DNA from: Eledone cirrhosa
Lineage: Eukaryota
NCBI GenBank assembly: GCA_964016885.1
Contig: OZ024740.1
Span: 67,270,001-67,334,000, forward strand
Direction of reading: 5' to 3'
DNA: 64,000 nucleotides
Shown: positions 10,714 through 53,508 of the stretch, piece after piece
Layout of the letters: the number at the start of each line of letters is the position of its first letter
How positions within the stretch are numbered: position 1 is the stretch's first letter
Position numbers and translations under genes: made by a program
The notes under the pieces: generated by a model
What the model was told of the DNA's origin: nothing
What the model saw: the letters and a program-made list of their open reading frames with translations, nothing else
Databases searched by the model: none

Positions 10714-10868
10714 CCAACTACACACAAATATATATTTGATTTGTCGGACTTAAACCTACAGGATTCATTGACTTGTCTCTATTTTCCTCTCTTTACGTTG
10801 CATACTACCATGTGTTTATTTCCTTCCCTCTGTTTTCCCACTGTGCCGATAACTTAATTGTGTTATCG

Positions 10869-10945
10869 CTCGCACTGACTTTAGGTATCTAGTCTTTAAT
10901 GCGTCGAAATATCAACGATAACCAGCAGACTACTGATGAGGACAT
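10869..10945 (+). ncRNA. Candidate permuted (pseudoknotted) hammerhead, copy A1
   Basis: ggtat-C-tagtct (10884-10895) ... c-GAA-atatc (10905-10913) ... agacta-CTGATGA-g (10927-10940). Confidence 0.7.
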
Positions 10946-11373
10946 TTTATCTCTTGGTCTATTTTTATTCATATGTTCATGTTCGCAACAACGCAGCACG
11001 CCATTCTTCATTCACATATTTTTTCCCTTCGCTGTGGTTCGTATTTTTCTGTCACTTTACTGCTATCACCTTTTCTCTCTCCTTCACCTCTTGCCTTCCT
11101 CAACTCCCGCTGCTGGTCACTCAATCTCGGCTGGCCCCATCCTCACACTTTCACTCACTTCCTCCCGTCTGACCTGCTTGAATTTCTTTCCTCTCTCAAT
11201 CTTCTCGCGGCTCGGACGTGTCTATATTCTCCTCGTCAATTTGATTTGTCGGACTTAAGCCCACACGATTCATTGACTGGTCTCTATTTTCCTCTCTTTA
11301 CGTTGCATGCTACAATGTGTTTGTTTCCTTCCCACTGTTTTCCCACTGTCCCGATAACTTAATTGAGTTATCG

Positions 11374-11450
11374 CTCGCACTGATTTTAGGTATCTAGTCT
11401 TTAATGCGTCGAAATACCAACGATAATCAGCAGACTACTGATGAGGACAT
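11374..11450 (+). ncRNA. Candidate permuted (pseudoknotted) hammerhead, copy A2, all helices intact
   Basis: cgca ctgatt tta ggtat C tagtct ttaa tgcgt c GAA atacc aacgat aatcag c agacta CTGATGA g. Stem III ggtat/atacc, stem I tagtct/agacta, G10.1-C11.1. Confidence 0.78.
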
Positions 11451-11472
11451 TTTATCTCTCGGTCTATTTTTA

Positions 11473-11514
<42 letters not shown>

Positions 11515-14763: not shown

Positions 14764-14808
14764 AGTCATAGTTCTTTCGTCACACATTCTGTGACCTCTT
14801 CAGTGACT
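14764..14808 (-). ncRNA. Type I hammerhead (family D pLTR)
   Basis: Reverse complement: agtca CTGAAGA g gtcac agaatgt gtgac GAAA gaac TA tgact. Confidence 0.75.
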
Positions 14809-21574: not shown

Positions 21575-21910
<336 letters not shown>

Positions 21911-26593: not shown

Positions 26594-27394
26594 CTATTGG
26601 GGTGATAACCCGTTTAGTTTTGGTTTAAATTTGTTAAGGAATAGATTTTCTTTGTTTATTCTTTGTTGCTGTGTGAACGAATCTAAGCACTTGTAGCAGG
26701 GGAAGATTTTAAAGTTGGGTAGTGTCATTCCTGCGCAGTTCGCAATATGGCTGCTCAAGGGGATTTTTCTTGTGTTAGCGTCCCGGATTCGTTGGCGGTG
26801 GATGGTCATTCTTTTGCGTAATGAGGTGCCCGTCTGTCCTATGTAGTTGTGTTTGCACCCACCGCAAGTTATTGCGTAAATCAAGTTCTCCGAGTTGCAG
26901 GTGAAATTGTTTTTTACTGTAAATGTTTGGCCATCTTTAAATGTAAATGTTTCTCCTTCAGTGAGGTAGAGGCACATTCCACAGTTTGTTCTACTACATT
27001 TGGTAACTGTAGGGTTGAGGATTGGTTTGGGTATATTTGGTCCAGTGAGAATGCGTTTTAGTGATTTGGGTTGTCTTTTACTTTTAAGGATCTTGTGTGT
27101 TTCAAGAATAGACTTCATTTTTACATCTTTAAGTAGGATGGGGAGGTTTTTGTGTAGGTGATCAAACATTTCGGTACTTCTGGGGTTGAAAGTGGATATA
27201 TATGGCAGGGTGTTGAGTGTGGTTTTCTGTTTTGGATTGTTAAGTTGATGGGGATTTAGGTGTTTTGCCCTGTCTATTCCATTGTTGATTATTTCAAGTG
27301 GAAAGGCTCTTAAGATAAGGGTGTCTTTTAGTTCCTTTAGTCTTTGCTCCCGTTTAGGTGGATCTGATACTATGGTACATATACGTTTGGCCAA
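26594..27394 (-). CDS. PLE RT thumb / Cys linker / GIY-YIG endonuclease, split from the RT by a duplication
   Basis: KCSRTNCGMC linker; FTCNSENLIYAITCGGCKHNYIGQT..RMTIHR..H..ENLFLNKFKPKLN. Confidence 0.9.
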   Translation of the reverse strand: MAKRICTIVSDPPKREQRLKELKDTLILRAFPLEIINNGIDRAKHLNPHQLNNPKQKTTLNTLPYISTFNPRSTEMFDHLHKNLPILLKDVKMKSILETHKILKSKRQPKSLKRILTGPNIPKPILNPTVTKCSRTNCGMCLYLTEGETFTFKDGQTFTVKNNFTCNSENLIYAITCGGCKHNYIGQTGTSLRKRMTIHRQRIRDANTRKIPLSSHIANCAGMTLPNFKIFPCYKCLDSFTQQQRINKENLFLNKFKPKLNGLSPQ

Positions 27395-28052
27395 ATTGTA
27401 AGGAATGTTAAGTTTTGTATGTTTTGGGTGACTTGATGTGAAAAAGAGGTATTGCTTGGAATCTGTGGGTTTATAGAATATATCTGTATCTAATCTTTAA
27501 ATGTAAATGTTTCTCCTTCAGTGAGGTAGAGGCACATTCCACAGTTTGTTCTACTACATTTGGTAACTGTAGGGTTGAGGATTGGTTTGGGTATATTTGG
27601 TCCAGTGAGAATGCGTTTTAGTGATTTGGGTTGTCTTTTACTTTTAAGGATCTTGTGTGTTTCAAGAATAGACTTCATTTTTACATCTTTAAGTAGGATG
27701 GGGAGGTTTTTGTGTAGGTGATCAAACATTTCGGTACTTCTGGGGTTGAAAGTGGATATATATGGCAGGGTGTTGAGTGTGGTTTTCTGTTTTGGATTGT
27801 TAAGTTGATGGGGATTTAGGTGTTTTGCCCTGTCTATTCCATTGTTGATTATTTCAAGTGGAAAGGCTCTTAAGATAAGGGTGTCTTTTAGTTCCTTTAG
27901 TCTTTGCTCCCGTTTAGGTGGATCTGATACTATGGTACATATACGTTTGGCCAAATTGTAAGGAATGTTAAGTTTTGTATGTTTTGGGTGACTTGATGTG
28001 AAAAAGAGGTATTGCTTGGAATCTGTGGGTTTATAGAATATATCTGTATCTA
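26933..28052. repeat. 560-bp tandem duplication inside the PLE ORF
   Basis: 26933-27492 matches 27493-28052 with no differences seen. 560 is not a multiple of 3, which produces the stop at 27490. Confidence 0.95.
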
Positions 28053-29592
28053 ATTTCCCGTCTATTACAGAGATGAGAATATCCAAGAAGGCTAATTCCT
28101 TGGGATTGGATTCCATTGTGAATTGCATGTTATTATCTATGTTGTTTATCATGTTTTTAAACATAGTAAGTGAGTTCATGTCTTCTTGCCATAGGATAAA
28201 GCAGTCGTCTAGATATCTTTTCCAATTGGCTTTGAGGTGTGTGTGGAAAGAGTCTCCAAATAAGAGAAGGGACTGACTATATATTTGATGTTCCTGGAAT
28301 CCCATGACTAGGTTGGCATATGTGGGTGCTACTTTCGTGCCCATTGCAGTACCTGATACTTGTCTGTATGTTGAACCATTGAATGTGAAGTAGTTATTTT
28401 GTAGGATAAAGCGGAGTCCGTCATTGATAAAATCTTTATTGATGCGTGTCGGTATTTCTGATGGGTGTGTGTTAAGCCAGTATTGGACTGCTGTTATTCC
28501 ATAGTTGTGGGGTATGTTTGTATAGAGGTTTATTACGTCAAAGGAGACAAGAATTGTATTTGCACTTACTGTTTTAGGGAGGTGTTTCAGCATGTCAAGG
28601 TCATCTCGTATGTAGCTCTGTATATGTTGTAGAAAGGGTTTCAGTAGGATGTCCAGAAAGTTGCTAAGTCTGTGGGTTTCACATGTAGGGCCTGCTATAA
28701 TTGGCCTGAGTTTTAGGTCTTCTGGTGTTGTTAGTTCAATGTAATTGTTGGTTGAGGTGTCACATGCATCGTTTAGGGGTTTACATTTGTGGAGTTTCGG
28801 TAAGCCGTAAAAGGCGCTTGTATTGCATTTGAAGTGGCTTATATAGTTAAACTCGTTTGTGGTTAAGCTGTTGCGGTATTTATTCAGTAAGGTCAAAAGG
28901 TTCCCCATTGTTTTGGTGTGTTTGTAGTTTTCTGTTTTTTCATAGTATGTGTTTTTTTCTAAAATGTTAAGTGCGAGGGTCCTATAGTAGTCCGTATTCA
29001 TAATGACAACAGTACTGCCTTTATCGGCTTCTTTGATGGTTATCTCAGGGTTGTTTCTAAGTATGAATAATTCTTCCCATTCGTGTGTAGATAGGTTTGA
29101 TTTCGTGTGTTTATTTGTAATTTTTTCATACGGAAAGTTGGTGATGTGTTCGCAGTACGTGTCCAGTGCTTTATTTCTTCCCTTTTGTGGGCAGAAATTG
29201 CTTTTTTTTCTACCCAGTGATTCGTCTTCAGTGTTGGTGTCGTTGTGGAAGAATTCCGTTAGTCGCAGCTTTCGGCAGAATTCTATGATGTCATCCTTCA
29301 TTTCGGGGAAGTTTGGTTTACGTGGTGTAGGTGTAAATTTCAGGCCCTTACTTAAAATGTTGATTTGTGTGTTGGTTAGAGGTGTCTTTGAGAGGTTGAT
29401 TATTTTTGGTTTCTCCTGAGAGGGGGGGGGGGGCATCGAGTATCCTGGTATTTCAGGCTTTTCCCTAAAAAAGGAATGTAGTTTTGTGTGATTATATTTT
29501 GTTGGTATGTTGCGTGTGGGTCTGTAGCTTGTTGTTTCATGAGGGTGAATGTGATGGTGGGGGTAGTATGTGCTGTGGTTGTTAATGAGCAA
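27490..29592 (-). CDS. Penelope-like reverse transcriptase (700 aa)
   Basis: KGLKFTPTP, IKEADKGSTVVIM, FYGLPKLHK, LRPIIAG, SFDVINLYTNIP, GTAMGTKVAPTYANL, WKRYLDDCF, FLDI, YKPTD..HP. Confidence 0.97.
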   Translation of the reverse strand: MLINNHSTYYPHHHIHPHETTSYRPTRNIPTKYNHTKLHSFFREKPEIPGYSMPPPPSQEKPKIINLSKTPLTNTQINILSKGLKFTPTPRKPNFPEMKDDIIEFCRKLRLTEFFHNDTNTEDESLGRKKSNFCPQKGRNKALDTYCEHITNFPYEKITNKHTKSNLSTHEWEELFILRNNPEITIKEADKGSTVVIMNTDYYRTLALNILEKNTYYEKTENYKHTKTMGNLLTLLNKYRNSLTTNEFNYISHFKCNTSAFYGLPKLHKCKPLNDACDTSTNNYIELTTPEDLKLRPIIAGPTCETHRLSNFLDILLKPFLQHIQSYIRDDLDMLKHLPKTVSANTILVSFDVINLYTNIPHNYGITAVQYWLNTHPSEIPTRINKDFINDGLRFILQNNYFTFNGSTYRQVSGTAMGTKVAPTYANLVMGFQEHQIYSQSLLLFGDSFHTHLKANWKRYLDDCFILWQEDMNSLTMFKNMINNIDNNMQFTMESNPKELAFLDILISVIDGKLDTDIFYKPTDSKQYLFFTSSHPKHTKLNIPYNLAKRICTIVSDPPKREQRLKELKDTLILRAFPLEIINNGIDRAKHLNPHQLNNPKQKTTLNTLPYISTFNPRSTEMFDHLHKNLPILLKDVKMKSILETHKILKSKRQPKSLKRILTGPNIPKPILNPTVTKCSRTNCGMCLYLTEGETFTFKD

Positions 29593-30162
29593 GGGTTCTG
29601 TTGTTGTTTCATGTGGTCTGGGTGCGTTATTTCTGTGGTACAGAGTGTTGAGGTTGGGGGTTTGTCTTTTGTTGGATTGAGGGTGATGTCTAGTGTGGTT
29701 GTGGGTAAGTTATGTTTTGATTTCAAGTGGTCTGGGTGGATTTCTTCTGAGGAATGTGGTGTGTGTGTTGTGAGTTGGATCTATGTTATTTCGTCGTTGG
29801 TTTATGTAGGTGTTATTTCTACGGAAACCTGTGTTGTGGTGGTTGGGTGTGTTTCTTTTGGTGTAGTTGGCCGTATTTGGTTTGTGTTGGTGGGGGATGT
29901 GCCTGTGGTTAGTGTGGAGTTTTCTTTCTGGTTCAGGTTCGTTTGTAATATGCTTTGTTTGGAATTTACGTGGTAAAACTATCGGTGTTGAGTTAATCCA
30001 TTTCTGGTAAATTCCAGCTTTGTTGAGGTTATTTATCATATTCCAGAAAGTGAATTTTCTGGTTTTTAGATGTTTTTTCCAGAGGTGTCCCATTTGTTTT
30101 TTGATATGGAGCAATGTTTTCTGTTCTGTTTTGGTATTCATAAGTTTTTCGATGGAGTTGCA

Positions 30163-30231
<69 letters not shown>

Positions 30232-30233
<2 letters not shown>

Positions 30234-30893
30234 CTGTTGCTCGCACCAACCGGAGGTATATGATTTTTAAAGCGATGAAATACCAATGAAGGTTGGAATA
30301 TCACTGACGAAGGACTATTTTTATCATTTGTAACCCATGTGCAGCCACGCAGTATTCTTTCTTCTCATGTTTTTTTATATATATTTTCCTCGGCTGCGTT
30401 TGTCTGTTTCTCTCTTACTGCTTCCCCGCTCTCTATGTTTCTTTCACATTCTTTCGCCCCCTCTGTCAGTTACACTTTCTCTCGAATGGCCTCTTCCTCG
30501 CACTTCCACTCACTCACTCTCTGTTTCTCCCCTTCTCACTTCCTCCCGTTTGGCCTGTAGTGGGTTCTCTTTTTGCTCCCATCTCACTCACGTCAGATGG
30601 TCTGTAACTCGCTCGCTCATGAAATCCAGCCAGTTTAAGCTGACTGGATTCCCATGCTGCTTGTTTTTTCCTATCTTGGCGTTGCTATCATCCTTCTATG
30701 TTTGTTTACTTGTCTCGCTCGCTTTACGCGATTTACTTGTCCCAATAGCTTTATTTAGCTATTGCTCGCACCAACCGGAGGTATATGACTTTTAAAGCGA
30801 TGAAATACCAATGAACGTTGGAAAATCACTGACGAAGGACTATTTTTATCATATGTAACCCATGTGCAACCACGCAGTATTCTTTCTTCTCAT

Positions 30894-30895
<2 letters not shown>
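30232..30895 (+). mobile_element. Non-coding 525-bp partial tandem repeat, subfamily B, with two reversed-order HHR cores (30241-30311, 30766-30836)
   Basis: tcgca ccaacc gga ggtat A tgattt ttaa agcga t GAA atacc aatgaa ggttgg a atatca CTGACGA a. (TA)n on both sides. Confidence 0.88.
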
Positions 30896-30954
<59 letters not shown>

Positions 30955-30978
30955 TATGTATATGTATATATATGTATG

Positions 30979-32992
<2,014 letters not shown>

Positions 32993-35566: not shown

Positions 35567-38500
35567 AAATTGGAATAAATGCTCTGAAATAGCGATATAT
35601 ATGTGAATATAGACATAGAATATTCGAAAATATTCTGTATGTTTATAATAAACATTTTGAAGACCTAATCGCTATAGAATAGAATACGTCACGTATTACA
35701 ATTAGATTCTCGATAAAAGCAAGGGAAGTAATCTACGCGTTTCATTCTTGTTAGAAATCATCAGGACTACATATCCAGTGCTTTTATCGAGAATGACACA
35801 GCTAGAGACTTATAGAATACTTAGCTGTGTACAGGAACTGGTTTGAAAGAGCGGTTGCCGGTCCGGCAGAAATTAGAAATTGGAATAAATGCTCTGAAAT
35901 AGCGATATATATGTGAATATAGACATAGAATATTCGAAAATATTCTGTATGTTTATAATAAACATTTTGAAGACCTAATCGCTATAGAATAGAATACGTC
36001 ACGTATTACAATTAGATTCTCGATAAAAGCAAGGGAAGTAATCTACGCGTTTCATTCTTGTTAGAAATCATCAGGACTACATATCCAGTGCTTTTATCGA
36101 GAATGACACAGCTAGAGACTTATAGAATACTTAGCTGTGTACAGGAACTGGTTTGAAAGAGCGGTTGCCGGTCCGGCAGAAATTAGAAATTGGAATAAAT
36201 GCTCTGAAATAGCGATATATATGTGAATATAGACATAGAATATTCGAAAATATTCTGTATGTTTATAATAAACATTTTGAAGACCTAATCGCTATAGAAT
36301 AGAATACGTCACGTATTACAATTAGATTCTCGATAAAAGCAAGGGAAGTAATCTACGCGTTTCATTCTTGTTAGAAATCATCAGGACTACATATCCAGTG
36401 CTTTTATCGAGAATGACACAGCTAGAGACTTATAGAATACTTAGCTGTGTACAGGAACTGGTTTGAAAGAGCGGTTGCCGGTCCGGCAGAAATTAAAATT
36501 GGAATAAATGCTCTGAAATAGCGATATATATGTGAATATAGACATAGAATATTCGAAAATATTCTGTATGTTTATAATAAACATTTTGAAGACCTAATCG
36601 CTATAGAATAGAATACGTCACGTATTACAATTAGATTCTCGATAAAAGCAAGCGAAGTAATCTACGCGTTTCATTCTTGTTAGAAATCATCAGGACTACA
36701 TATCCAGTGCTTTTATCGAGAATGACACAGCTAGAGACTTATAGAATACTTAGCTGTGTACAGGAACTGGTTTGAAAGAGCGGTTGCCGGTCCGGCAGAA
36801 ATTAGAAATTGGAATAAATGCTCTGAAATAGCGATATATATGTGAATATAGACATAGAATATTCGAAAATATTCTGTAGTTTATAATAAACATTTTGAAG
36901 ACCTAATCGCTATAGAATAGAATACGTCACGTATTACAATTAGATTCTCGATAAAAGCAAGGGAAGTAATCTACGCGTTTCATTCTTGTTAGAAATCATC
37001 AGGACTACATATCCAGTGCTTTTATCGAGAATGACACAGCTAGATATGACACAGCTAGGATATGTATTCCTGATGATTTCTAACAAGAATGAAACGCGTA
37101 GATTACTTCCCTTGCTTTTATCGAGAATCTAATTGTAATACGTGACGTATTCTATTCTATAGCGATTAGGTCTTCAAAATGTTTATTATAAACATACAGA
37201 ATATTTTCGAATATTCTATGTCTATATTCACATATATATCGCTATTTCAGAGCATTTATTCCAATTTCTAATTTCTGCCGGACCGGCAACCGCTCTTTCA
37301 AACCAGTTCCTGTACACAGCTAAGTATTCTATAAGTCTCTAGCTGTGTCATTCTCGATAAAAGCACTGGATATGTAGTCCTGATGATTTCTAACAAGAAT
37401 GAAACGCGTAGATTACTTCCCTTGCTTTTATCGAGAATCTAATTGTAATACGTGACGTATTCTATTCTATAGCGATTAGGTCTTCAAAATGTTTATTATA
37501 AACATACAGAATATTTTCGAATATTCTATGTCTATATTCACATATATATCGCTATTTCAGAGCATTTATTCCAATTTCTAATTTCTGCCGGACCGGCAAC
37601 CGCTCTTTCAAACCAGTTCCTGTACACAGCTAAGTATTCTATAAGTCTCTAGCTGTGTCATTCTCGATAAAAGCACTGGATATGTAGTCCTGATGATTTC
37701 TAACAAGAATGAAACGCGTAGATTACTTCCCTTGCTTTTATCGAGAATCTAATTGTAATACGTGACGTATTCTATTCTATAGCGATTAGGTCTTCAAAAT
37801 GTTTATTATAAACATACAGAATATTTTCGAATATTCTATGTCTATATTCACATATATATCGCTATTTCAGAGCATTTATTCCAATTTCTAATTTCTGCCG
37901 GACCGGCAACCGCTCTTTCAAACCAGTTCCTGTACACAGCTAAGTATTCTATAAGTCTCTAGCTGTGTCATTCTCGATAAAAGCACTGGATATGTAGTCC
38001 TGATGATTTCTAACAAGAATGAAACGCGTAGATTACTTCCCTTGCTTTTATCGAGAATCTAATTGTAATACGTGACGTATTCTATTCTATAGCGATTAGG
38101 TCTTCAAAATGTTTATTATAAACATACAGAATATTTTCGAATATTCTATGTCTATATTCACATATATATCGCTATTTCAGAGCATTTATTCCAATTTCTA
38201 ATTTCTGCCGGACCGGCAACCGCTCTTTCAAACCAGTTCCTGTACACAGCTAAGTATTCTATAAGTCTCTAGCTGTGTCATTCTCGATAAAAGCACTGGA
38301 TATGTAGTCCTGATGATTTCTAACAAGAATGAAACGCGTAGATTACTTCCCTTGCTTTTATCGAGAATCTAATTGTAATACGTGACGTATTCTATTCTAT
38401 AGCGATTAGGTCTTCAAAATGTTTATTATAAACATACAGAATATTTTCGAATATTCTATGTCTATATTCACATATATATCGCTATTTCAGAGCATTTATT

Positions 38501-47160: not shown

Positions 47161-47195
<35 letters not shown>

Positions 47196-47197
<2 letters not shown>

Positions 47198-47383
47198 TGA
47201 GATTCTACAGGACTAGAACTGTTTCATTCATTAGAAATCATCAGGAATCAGATTCCTGATGATTTCTAATGAATGAAACAGTTCTAGTCCTGTAGAATCT
47301 CATCTATATTAAAACTTTTATACTCTGCTATGTATTGAGTACCTTACTTACTGTGGTTACCTCCGATTCAACCCGGAATAACG
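47196..47383 (+). mobile_element. Family F fragment: two intact HHRs back-to-back (47200-47249 on -, 47250-47300 on +)
   Basis: agattc CTGATGA tttc taat gaat GAAA cag ttctagtc ctg TA gaatct, with its inverse immediately upstream. Confidence 0.88.
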
Positions 47384-51910: not shown

Positions 51911-51913
<3 letters not shown>

Positions 51914-52727
51914 TCATGAAATCCACCCAGCTTATGCTGACCAGGACTAACATGTTGCGTGTTTATTTCCTTTCTTTGGTTTGCTTTAATCCTTCTATGT
52001 TGTTCACTTGTCCCCCTTACTTTACGCGATTTACTGGTTCCAATAACCTTTTTTAGTTATTGCTCGCACCAACCTGAGGGGTCTGATTTTTAATGCGATG
52101 AAATACCAATGATGGTTGGAATATCACTGACGAAGGACTATTTTTATCATATGTAACCTATGTGCAACCACGCGGTATTCTTCTTTCTTCTCATGTTTTT
52201 TTAATATATATTCACCTCGGCTGCGTTTTTCTGTTTCTCTCTTACTGCTTCCCCGTTCTCTCTGTTTCTCTCACCTTCTTTCGCCCCCTCTGTCAGTTAC
52301 ACTTTCTCTCGACTGACCGCTTCCTCGCACTTCCACTCACTCACTCTCTGTTTCTCCCCTTCTCACTTCCTCCCGTTTGGCTAACAGTGGGTCTCTTCTT
52401 GCTTACATCCCACTCACGCTGGACGTGTCTGTACCTTACGCTCATGAAATCCACCAAGCTTATGCTGACCAGGACTACCATGTTGCTTGTTTATTTCCTT
52501 TTTTTGGTTTGCTTTTATCCTTCTATATTGTTCACTTGTCCCCCTCGCTTTACGCGATTTACTGGTCCCAATAACTTTTTTTAGTTATTGCTCGCACCAA
52601 CCTGAGGTATCTGATTTTTAATTCGATGAAATATCAATGATGGTTGGAAAATCACTGACGAAGGACTATTTTTATCATATGTAACCTATGTGCAACCACG
52701 CAATATTCTTCTTTCTTCTCATGTTTT
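51911..52727 (+). mobile_element. Non-coding 528-bp partial tandem repeat, subfamily B, with two reversed-order HHR cores (52064-52134, 52592-52662)
   Basis: tcgca ccaacc tga ggtat C tgattt ttaa ttcga t GAA atatc aatgat ggttgg a aaatca CTGACGA a. TA tracts on both sides. Confidence 0.88.
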
Positions 52728-53508
52728 TTATATATATATATAATTTCTTTGTTAAAAAATCAAATTAAATTAATTCACCAGTTAAACATATATAGGTATA
52801 ATAATGGTTGTTACCAAAGAACCAGAATATTGACAATTCGACACTAAATATGAGTAATAGCTCTAGGCAAGCCATGAGCGAAACGACATATTTTAAAATT
52901 AGATTTTGAAAGTAGGTTTATAATTATTTACTCTCATTATACTTTAGTAGCTGTCTCGGCGGCCTAGTTGGAGGAATCATAGACGGTGATGACCCTTGTC
53001 TGATGTTCGAACTGGTCGATAGTTGGGTCCGCGTTAAACCTTTTCAGTTTTTTTTTTGTATGGGATGTAAAATAAAACCTGAAAAATATTACATGTACCT
53101 CTCGTCCAGGATTGAACCCAAGGCCAGGATCCCTATTGTCACTAGTACCTACGACTAGTCCCCTGAGACAACTACGAAAATCTACTGAAAATTCATATTT
53201 ATAAACCTACTTTCAAAATTTTCAAAACAAAATCATGTGGTGTCCTTCTTAATGTTATTGTCTTTACTTACGGTCGCCTTCTCCATCTTCTGGGTGTTCC
53301 GTAAACTATATCCTCGTTTTGTATCTTATCTATCTAGGCTATATTTTAACCTGTAATCAATGTTTCGTTCCTGTTGCACTCCATCCTCCCCCTCTCTCTT
53401 TCTCTCTGTGATATTTGAATCTACTCTTAATTAGGCTTACATTATTCATATATATATATATATATATATATGCTTGTGCATGTCAGATTCAAACTTACAA
53501 TGATTGGC

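Follow-up and report, generated by a model that had tools for sequence, protein, structure and literature searches.

The genome of Eledone cirrhosa appears to carry a family of non-autonomous Penelope-like retroelements (PLEs), whose monomer of 0.5-0.65 kb contains a hammerhead fold of type SGC that is likely self-cleaving and likely derives from the 3' end of a Naiad element; judging from sequence, we give this reading a probability of about 0.7. Three of its insertions lie in the 64-kb stretch of DNA analysed here as a whole (hereafter the window). The element type and the SGC block order were known already and, as far as we found, novelty would lie in the host, the scale, the splitting of helix II and the link to Naiads.

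Three partial tandem insertions in the window

The insertions and the units derived from them have the following positions in the window:

10734..11479, + strand: insertion L1, 1.48 units of a 505-bp monomer, subfamily L1
30233..30897, + strand: insertion L2, approximately 1.3 units of a 525-bp monomer
51912..52728, + strand: insertion L3, 1.55 units of a 528-bp monomer, with (TA)n on both sides
11476..11513, no strand assigned: (TA)n target at the 3' end of L1
10890..11394, + strand: predicted cut-to-cut monomer of L1, 505 nt, C+T 0.68, self-pairing z +0.4
52084..52611, + strand: predicted cut-to-cut monomer of L3, 528 nt

Exact repeat alignment confirmed the three C+T-rich partial tandems with (TA)n ends that a sequence-only reading of this DNA had described. 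In L1, 10734-10974 recurs at 11239-11479 (period 505, 227/241 identical), in L2, 30227-30384 recurs at 30752-30909 (period 525, 148/158 identical) and in L3, 51909-52211 recurs at 52437-52739 (period 528, 283/303 identical), the repeated parts being approximately 94% identical. The 3' end of each insertion is (TA)n, and L2 is bracketed by (TA)n tracts at 30162-30232 and 30897-31004. The three monomers have a C+T content of 67-68% and a GC content of 43-44%, and their self-pairing is not unusual (z of +0.4, -1.7 and -0.2). Their description as ORF-less holds in that no Pfam match was obtained among the stop-free frames searched (0/4), but such frames of 121-160 codons are present on the + strand, which is the pyrimidine-rich one. 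The three insertions are not all of one subfamily: L2 and L3 are 87-89% identical to each other, and L1 belongs to a distinct subfamily with 73% identity to them over the ribozyme and approximately 61% elsewhere. The 1-kb flanks of the three insertions show no mutual similarity.

Three observations concern the surroundings of these insertions. A very high-copy repeat ending in (TA)n lies immediately upstream of L3 (51743-51880) and is also found beside the family copies L006, L008, L029 and L053, which points to nesting in common (TA)n targets. The downstream flank of L1 (from 11514 onward) is common, over at least 40 bp, to copy L043 on another contig, suggesting insertion into the same repeat or co-mobilisation. 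Finally, the (TA)n preceding L2 adjoins the 5' end of an element on the - strand (26594-30165), which has no hammerhead core in its 3' UTR.

A predicted pseudoknotted hammerhead with a split helix II

The blocks of the motif follow each other from 5' to 3' in the order cleavage site, GAAA and CUGANGA, which is the order of type SGC and not of types I-III. In helix III, GGUAU pairs with AUACC and the cleavage nucleotide comes next; the six bases after this nucleotide pair with the six bases preceding CUGANGA to form helix I. GAAA is located upstream of CUGANGA with no room between the two for a canonical helix I, and the wiring is that of type SGC. Helix II is discontinuous: the strand preceding GAAA pairs with a segment upstream of it (IIa), the strand following CUGANGA with a segment upstream of the IIa partner (IIb), and a hairpin (P1) stands between the two upstream segments, giving a four-way junction in place of helix II. 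A further helix, P5, is formed by the strand after IIa and the strand before helix I. Instead of the continuous helix II that is a criterion of type SGC, one pair (10.1-11.1) is found, in only 15/20 subfamily representatives, so activity is not guaranteed. The predicted motif is thus a variant, and not a plain member, of type SGC. RNAfold, which cannot model pseudoknots, recovered P1 and IIb together with competing folds. Reading the motif as type II, with helices III and I as hairpins, was considered and rejected, as L2 and L3 leave no space for helix I.

The six copies of the motif are as follows:

10843..10943, + strand: SGC hammerhead copy L1a, predicted cut after C10889 (AUC), P5 and IIb mismatched
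11348..11448, + strand: copy L1b, predicted cut after C11394 (AUC), helices I, III, P5, IIb and P1 completely paired and IIa 4/5
30233..30315, + strand: copy L2a, predicted cut after A30260 (AUA), 5'-truncated, the 5' extension being gone and with it the partner strands of IIb and P1
30739..30840, + strand: copy L2b, predicted cut after A30785 (AUA), one mismatch in helix I
52037..52138, + strand: copy L3a, predicted cut after C52083, helix III disrupted
52565..52666, + strand: copy L3b, predicted cut after C52611 (AUC), one mismatch in IIa

A covariance model, whose training set included three of the six copies, returned exactly these six in the 64 kb, all with E<=7e-16 (the next match having E=0.09), in agreement with the two ribozyme motifs per insertion reported before. 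A strict SGC descriptor matched three of them, and 30 windows shuffled locally gave nothing; mutations private to one copy, or a truncation, are present in the three copies that it missed. The five other block orders gave no match at these loci, and Rfam found no hammerhead in the whole window (where microsatellite matches dominate), in L1 alone or at four other loci. The catalytic blocks (CUGANGA, GAAA), the A15.1-U16.1 pair and the NUH triplet are intact in all six copies. Three of the six copies are not intact as motifs: L2a by its truncation, L1a by the mismatches in two peripheral helices, and L3a, which is likely inactive, by the disruption of helix III.

Covariation and the cleavage nucleotide

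Covariation was analysed in an alignment of 20 subfamily representatives, in which 93.1% of 699 cells pair and 18/35 pairs change on both sides. None of 500 shuffles equalled the observed pairing, and slid control structures gave 27-45%. As the structure was derived from the same 20 sequences and the shuffle ignores relatedness, two extra checks were added. A tree-based parsimony count yielded 14 compensatory changes against a null mean of 0.87 (maximum 5 in 2000), and four of the top five column pairs, among 6,328 ranked, belong to the proposed structure. Helices I and P5, both outside every search pattern, show double changes in 10/12 pairs (5/6 in helix I, which is 95% paired, and 5/6 in P5, which is 93% paired), and IIa and IIb are 87% and 95% paired in the 20 representatives. 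Helix III, which is part of the search pattern, is 98% paired with no double change within the main superfamily; its strands are different yet complementary in two other families of the genome, as seen by eye. The permuted hammerhead proposed earlier is supported, with strong covariation.

In the largest subfamily (n=46), whose defining sites are fixed by construction, the predicted cleavage nucleotide is C or A in a 50:50 ratio, corresponding to a minor frequency of 0.50, when the other 73 sites do not exceed 0.09. According to the NUH rule of hammerheads, the cleavage nucleotide is not G. In 92 copies unselected on this position (H17), C was found 57 times, A 31 times, T four times and G never, and U16.1 is present in 89/92. 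This distribution at the predicted cleavage nucleotide matches the NUH rule. Core conservation across subfamilies is partly circular, because most of these subfamilies were found by a core pattern; among the copies found via the upstream half alone, 4/5 have intact cores. A misreading of the cleavage nucleotide at the ligation junction was also considered and is not supported (4/42 tandem pairs differ, p=0.06).

A dispersed family with the architecture of Penelope-like insertions

The motif pattern has at least 9,273 exact matches in the genome (3.0 Gb, approximately 30 large contigs) versus 0 for the reversed control, and this number is a lower bound since only 3/6 window copies fit the pattern. 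DNA searches gave 1,817 first-look candidates of L3-type and approximately 1,468 of L1-type, of which 40 each were scored, and the architecture was described on 27 L3-type and 27 L1-type loci after removal of window loci and duplicates. A (TA)n follows the 3' end in 26/27 copies of either type. The 3' ends of the L3-type lie at one point (25/27 inside one 10-nt bin) and those of the L1-type at two points approximately 45 nt apart, and the 5' starts are scattered, indicating variable 5' truncation. Inverted 5' pieces were seen in 4/27 L1-type and 0/27 L3-type copies. The unit lengths cluster at 497-543 and 630-637 bp, and complete monomers recur head to tail, two to three times, uninterrupted by any ORF sequence. 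Taken together, these data support the view that the insertions are non-autonomous, PLE-like retroelements dispersed genome-wide: the partial tandems, the 5' truncation, the fixed 3' end with tail variants, the inverted 5' copies and the microsatellite targeting of PLEs are all found. Features of PLE and Naiad insertions, including truncation and (TA)n targeting, are listed in section 6 of PMC8557442, in the portion of that paper considered here.

Outside this genome, about half of a metagenome collection gave 117 pattern matches, which were treated as chance since only one of them has four helix I pairs; viral contigs gave 0 matches. Other SGC-type families occur in E. cirrhosa itself. One of them, unrelated to the main family (L027:2259-3210), has a GUC triplet, a unit of approximately 810 bp, a partial tandem and a (TA)n end, and the copy at this locus is inserted directly behind a main-family copy. 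An older family (L102-L130), with copies approximately 70-84% alike, has an SGC motif with a different helix III and apparently no P1 hairpin, and two or three more small families are present among 34 pattern matches.

Comparison with known ribozymes and retrozymes

Type SGC (HRIMA-1, SGC variants) was described by Eckert et al. 2023 (PMC10085705) from 583 sequences, all from metatranscriptomes; in the parts of that paper considered here, none is reported from the genome of a known organism except one GCS candidate, and octopus, Metazoa and Mollusca gave no match in the corresponding part of its supplement. The SGC ribozymes reported there cleave in vitro at 0.007-0.19 per min. As far as these parts allow a comparison, the fold in E. 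cirrhosa shares with them the block order site-GAAA-CUGANGA, the intact core, the crossing helices I and III, the short stretch that links helix I to the helix II strand, and an additional helix by which helix I is tied to the region of helix II. In contrast, it resides in an animal genome, in more than 9,000 retroelement copies, and its activity is predicted from sequence; its helix II strands pair with the 5' extension via the four-way junction and hairpin, and its tying helix (P5) uses the 5' strand, with a different connectivity.

With the animal non-LTR retrozymes, as presented in the parts considered of Cervera and de la Pena 2020 (PMC7229834) and of Li et al. 2026 (bioRxiv 10.64898/2026.07.22.740005), the elements have in common the non-coding tandem monomers with one hammerhead each, a GC content below 45%, the dispersed distribution, and the proposed PLE origin with mobilisation in trans. 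The kinship suggested by the sequence-only reading is partial: it holds for the tandem, non-coding monomers with one ribozyme each, but three features fail, as the described retrozymes are of type I, of approximately 170-400 nt and form highly self-paired circles, whereas the present elements are of type SGC, of 505-637 nt, C+T rich and not strongly self-paired. Only type I motifs are found in these portions of the 2026 preprint and of PMC7229834, and PMC13725137, in its considered part, only cites alternative permutations. In the literature searched, which covered few subscription papers, nothing was found on SGC hammerheads of animals, PLEs or retrozymes. If our reading is true, a non-circularly permuted hammerhead would here, as far as that literature goes, be linked for the first time to a cellular genome and a biological role, in thousands of copies. 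Since standard descriptors and Rfam miss the SGC wiring, the counts of animal ribozymes and retrozymes are probably too low. The four-way junction in place of helix II would also be a new architecture for structural study.

Probable relation to Naiad elements

The Naiads, which are dominant in many invertebrate genomes, pose a stated puzzle in seemingly lacking the hammerhead of other PLEs, and the fold bears on it. The parts considered of Craig et al. 2021 (PMC8557442) mention eight 'half cores' in Naiads, two of them from cephalopod families, but no canonical hammerhead, and describe cephalopod Naiads as old remnants. As far as these parts go, the present elements are like Naiads in their partial tandems, 5' truncation, inverted 5' copies, tail extension and (TA)n targeting, and unlike them in having neither an ORF nor BLAST-level similarity to the Naiad remnants of this genome.

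We parsed 13 of the 54 Naiad consensus 3' ends of File S5 of PMC8557442 by eye, with neither scores nor statistics and with names following the file order. Seven of the 13 fit the SGC fold with P5, helix II being partly or fully split: one from a ctenophore (with a short helix I), three from Acropora, two from Octopus and one from Euprymna. Also by eye, a UUAAU linker is common to the three Acropora (coral) Naiads and this element family, and a hairpin loop is common to the two Octopus Naiads and this family. Four passages in the nematode section of the file follow the canonical block order and two Naiad ends have no core; because of these four passages, the SGC fold is not universal in Naiads.

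In the E. cirrhosa genome, the pattern of the Naiad CxC region was found at three loci, all broken, with endonuclease-like residues upstream of the reverse transcriptase (RT) and a DKA motif. In 12/30 Naiad-remnant loci, the 3' UTR region could be made out; it shows S-G-C blocks with a U3-A8 core, a variant known among PLE hammerheads from the part considered of PMC4209133. Two helices pair in 85.6% of cells versus 16-47% for slid structures, shuffles not being beaten (106/500), and these data are suggestive only of a decayed SGC fold in the remnants. BLAST of the elements against the 30 Naiad-remnant loci gave no match. We consider a Naiad origin of the ribozyme quite probable, and the SGC-like fold of Naiad ends likely explains the apparent lack of a hammerhead in Naiads. 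The earlier suggestion that this could be the missing ribozyme of a supposedly hammerhead-less PLE clade gains from the same fold in 7/13 Naiad ends and from its decayed counterpart in the remnants, but it does not extend to all Naiads.

Proposed mechanism and alternative explanations

According to the mechanism that we propose, (i) a host transcript would read through a tandem insertion; (ii) each predicted ribozyme would cut after AUC or AUA and release a monomer of 505-637 nt; (iii) the ends of the monomer, held together by the peripheral helices (IIb, IIa, P5) and by helix III, could be re-ligated into a circle; (iv) the reverse transcriptase/GIY-YIG nuclease of a PLE, acting in trans, would nick a (TA)n target; (v) priming would occur on the U-rich/(AU)n tract that lies inside the monomer, 85-130 nt downstream of the cut; and (vi) one to three rounds of copying past the junction, whether ligated or uncleaved, would give partial tandems. 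The candidate priming sites, whose role is putative, are:

10970..10974, + strand: internal CAUAU of L1, homologous to the fixed 3' end
30370..30384, + strand: internal U7(AU)4 tract of L2, homologous to the fixed 3' end
52196..52211, + strand: internal U-rich/(AU)n tract of L3, homologous to the fixed 3' end

In the window copies, the 3' end of the insertion differs from the predicted cut site and corresponds to an internal AT-rich tract 85-117 nt downstream of it. Since this end lies inside the monomer, reverse transcription would start inside and cross the cut site, and the template would therefore be ligated or uncleaved. As IIb, IIa, P5 and III would hold the ends after cleavage, re-ligation would be favoured. 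The 1.3-3 units observed could be explained by a circle copied for more than one round, or also by an uncleaved tandem transcript.

Several other explanations could be issued. The tandem units provide each block twice, and PLE minimal hammerheads are thought to act as dimers (PMC4209133, part considered), so that the helices could form between units or between two molecules, as an ordinary type II/III hammerhead in a multimer. This is improbable in our opinion: the local fold spans 56 nt, when pairing between units would have to bridge more than 520 nt, covariation is found in the local helices P5, IIa, IIb and P1, the same wiring is seen at the 3' ends of full-length Naiad consensus sequences of approximately 3.5-4 kb (PMC8557442, part considered), and single SGC constructs cleave in cis in the part considered of PMC10085705. 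The fold could also be a hammerhead-derived structure that does not cleave and was retained as a recognition site for the PLE reverse transcriptase, in agreement with the split helix II, the first pair of which is missing in 5/20 representatives, and with the distance of approximately 100 nt between the fold and the candidate priming site. The catalytic blocks, intact in 6/6 window copies and in 4/5 copies selected on their upstream half, and the avoidance of G at the cleavage nucleotide in 92/92 unselected copies make such a loss of cleavage improbable.

The two remaining explanations bear on the insertions rather than on the fold. The copies might merely be 5'-truncated pseudo-LTRs of an autonomous PLE and not a self-standing family, given that truncation and (TA)n targeting are typical of autonomous PLEs and that the examination covered a minor part of the sites, of which there are more than 9,000; the head-to-tail repetition of whole monomers two to three times with no ORF between, the lack of an upstream RT ORF in the loci screened and the absence of the motif from the 3' UTRs of nine C-terminal-endonuclease (C-terminal-EN) families render this very doubtful. 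A duplication at the DNA level, or a satellite DNA containing hammerhead-like words by chance, would account for the tandem arrangement, but the copies are scattered over many chromosomes, their flanks are unrelated, their 3' end is fixed and their 5' end truncated, and the covariation and the control counts of 0 argue in the same direction. We regard it as extremely unlikely; segmental duplication in particular is rejected, as the flanks of the copies are unrelated, and the retroelement origin put forward at the outset stands.

Search for an autonomous partner and probable present mobiliser

The sequence-only reading had suggested that longer copies might join an RT ORF; in the loci screened, no RT ORF continuous with the motif was found upstream and no autonomous copy shares the monomer. 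The elements contain no ORF with N-terminal GIY-YIG, CxC and DKA motifs and RT, hence they are Naiad-derived at most. C-terminal-EN elements accounted for all of the top 30 GIY-YIG matches and of 20 long-ORF loci, and their 3' UTR lacked the motif. For the nine C-terminal-EN families, which end in (TA)n, the 3' UTRs gave no BLAST match.

Naiad remnants are a median 77% alike versus approximately 96% for the two element families, the three sets consisting all of top matches and being thus biased alike. Four C-terminal-EN families are 92-98.5% alike, some with open frames of 844-1,096 codons. The Naiad DKA region has 34 matches in the genome, in which every open frame is at most 182 codons; the Naiad searches scored the best candidates only, so that a divergent active Naiad could escape. 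Since the Naiads found are far older than the elements, the present mobiliser would be another PLE, and we hold it reasonably probable that the recent spread used a PLE other than Naiad. This mobiliser is probably a young C-terminal-EN PLE and not the dead Naiad family; an undetected Naiad family may also play this role. The idea of mobilisation in trans by a PLE is consistent with the non-autonomous, PLE-like architecture, but a Naiad as the present mobiliser is weakened, all its pieces being old and broken.

A broader scenario, to which we would give slightly less than an even chance, is that the pseudoknotted hammerhead with a split helix II was ancestral to marine Naiads, from ctenophores and corals to cephalopods, and survives here in active, circular 'SGC retrozymes' of 0.5-0.6 kb, which would have switched to the enzymes of another Penelope clade and outlived their parent Naiad.

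Hammerheads of other kinds were observed during these searches. In five young C-terminal-EN PLE families (L207, L346, L224, L365, L098), no hammerhead core was recognisable in the 3' UTR up to the first (TA)n, and these may use another ribozyme or none. The 3' UTRs of one C-terminal-EN family (L202-L223) contain a minimal type I hammerhead whose core is U3-A8 and whose helix III is palindromic. In the window, canonical-order hammerhead cores at 14803 (-), 15607 (+), 44027 (-) and 44234 (+) belong to the pseudo-LTR of another C-terminal-EN PLE family. Between 35567 and 39409, approximately 12 near-identical units of 310 bp form two inverted halves meeting near 37050, and every unit bears a canonical minimal type I hammerhead whose helix III is palindromic; by its predicted motifs, this array is an ordinary non-LTR retrozyme or pseudo-LTR array. 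A palindromic element is present at 21660-21800 and 47190-47290, where hammerhead-like words on both strands form a long inverted repeat.
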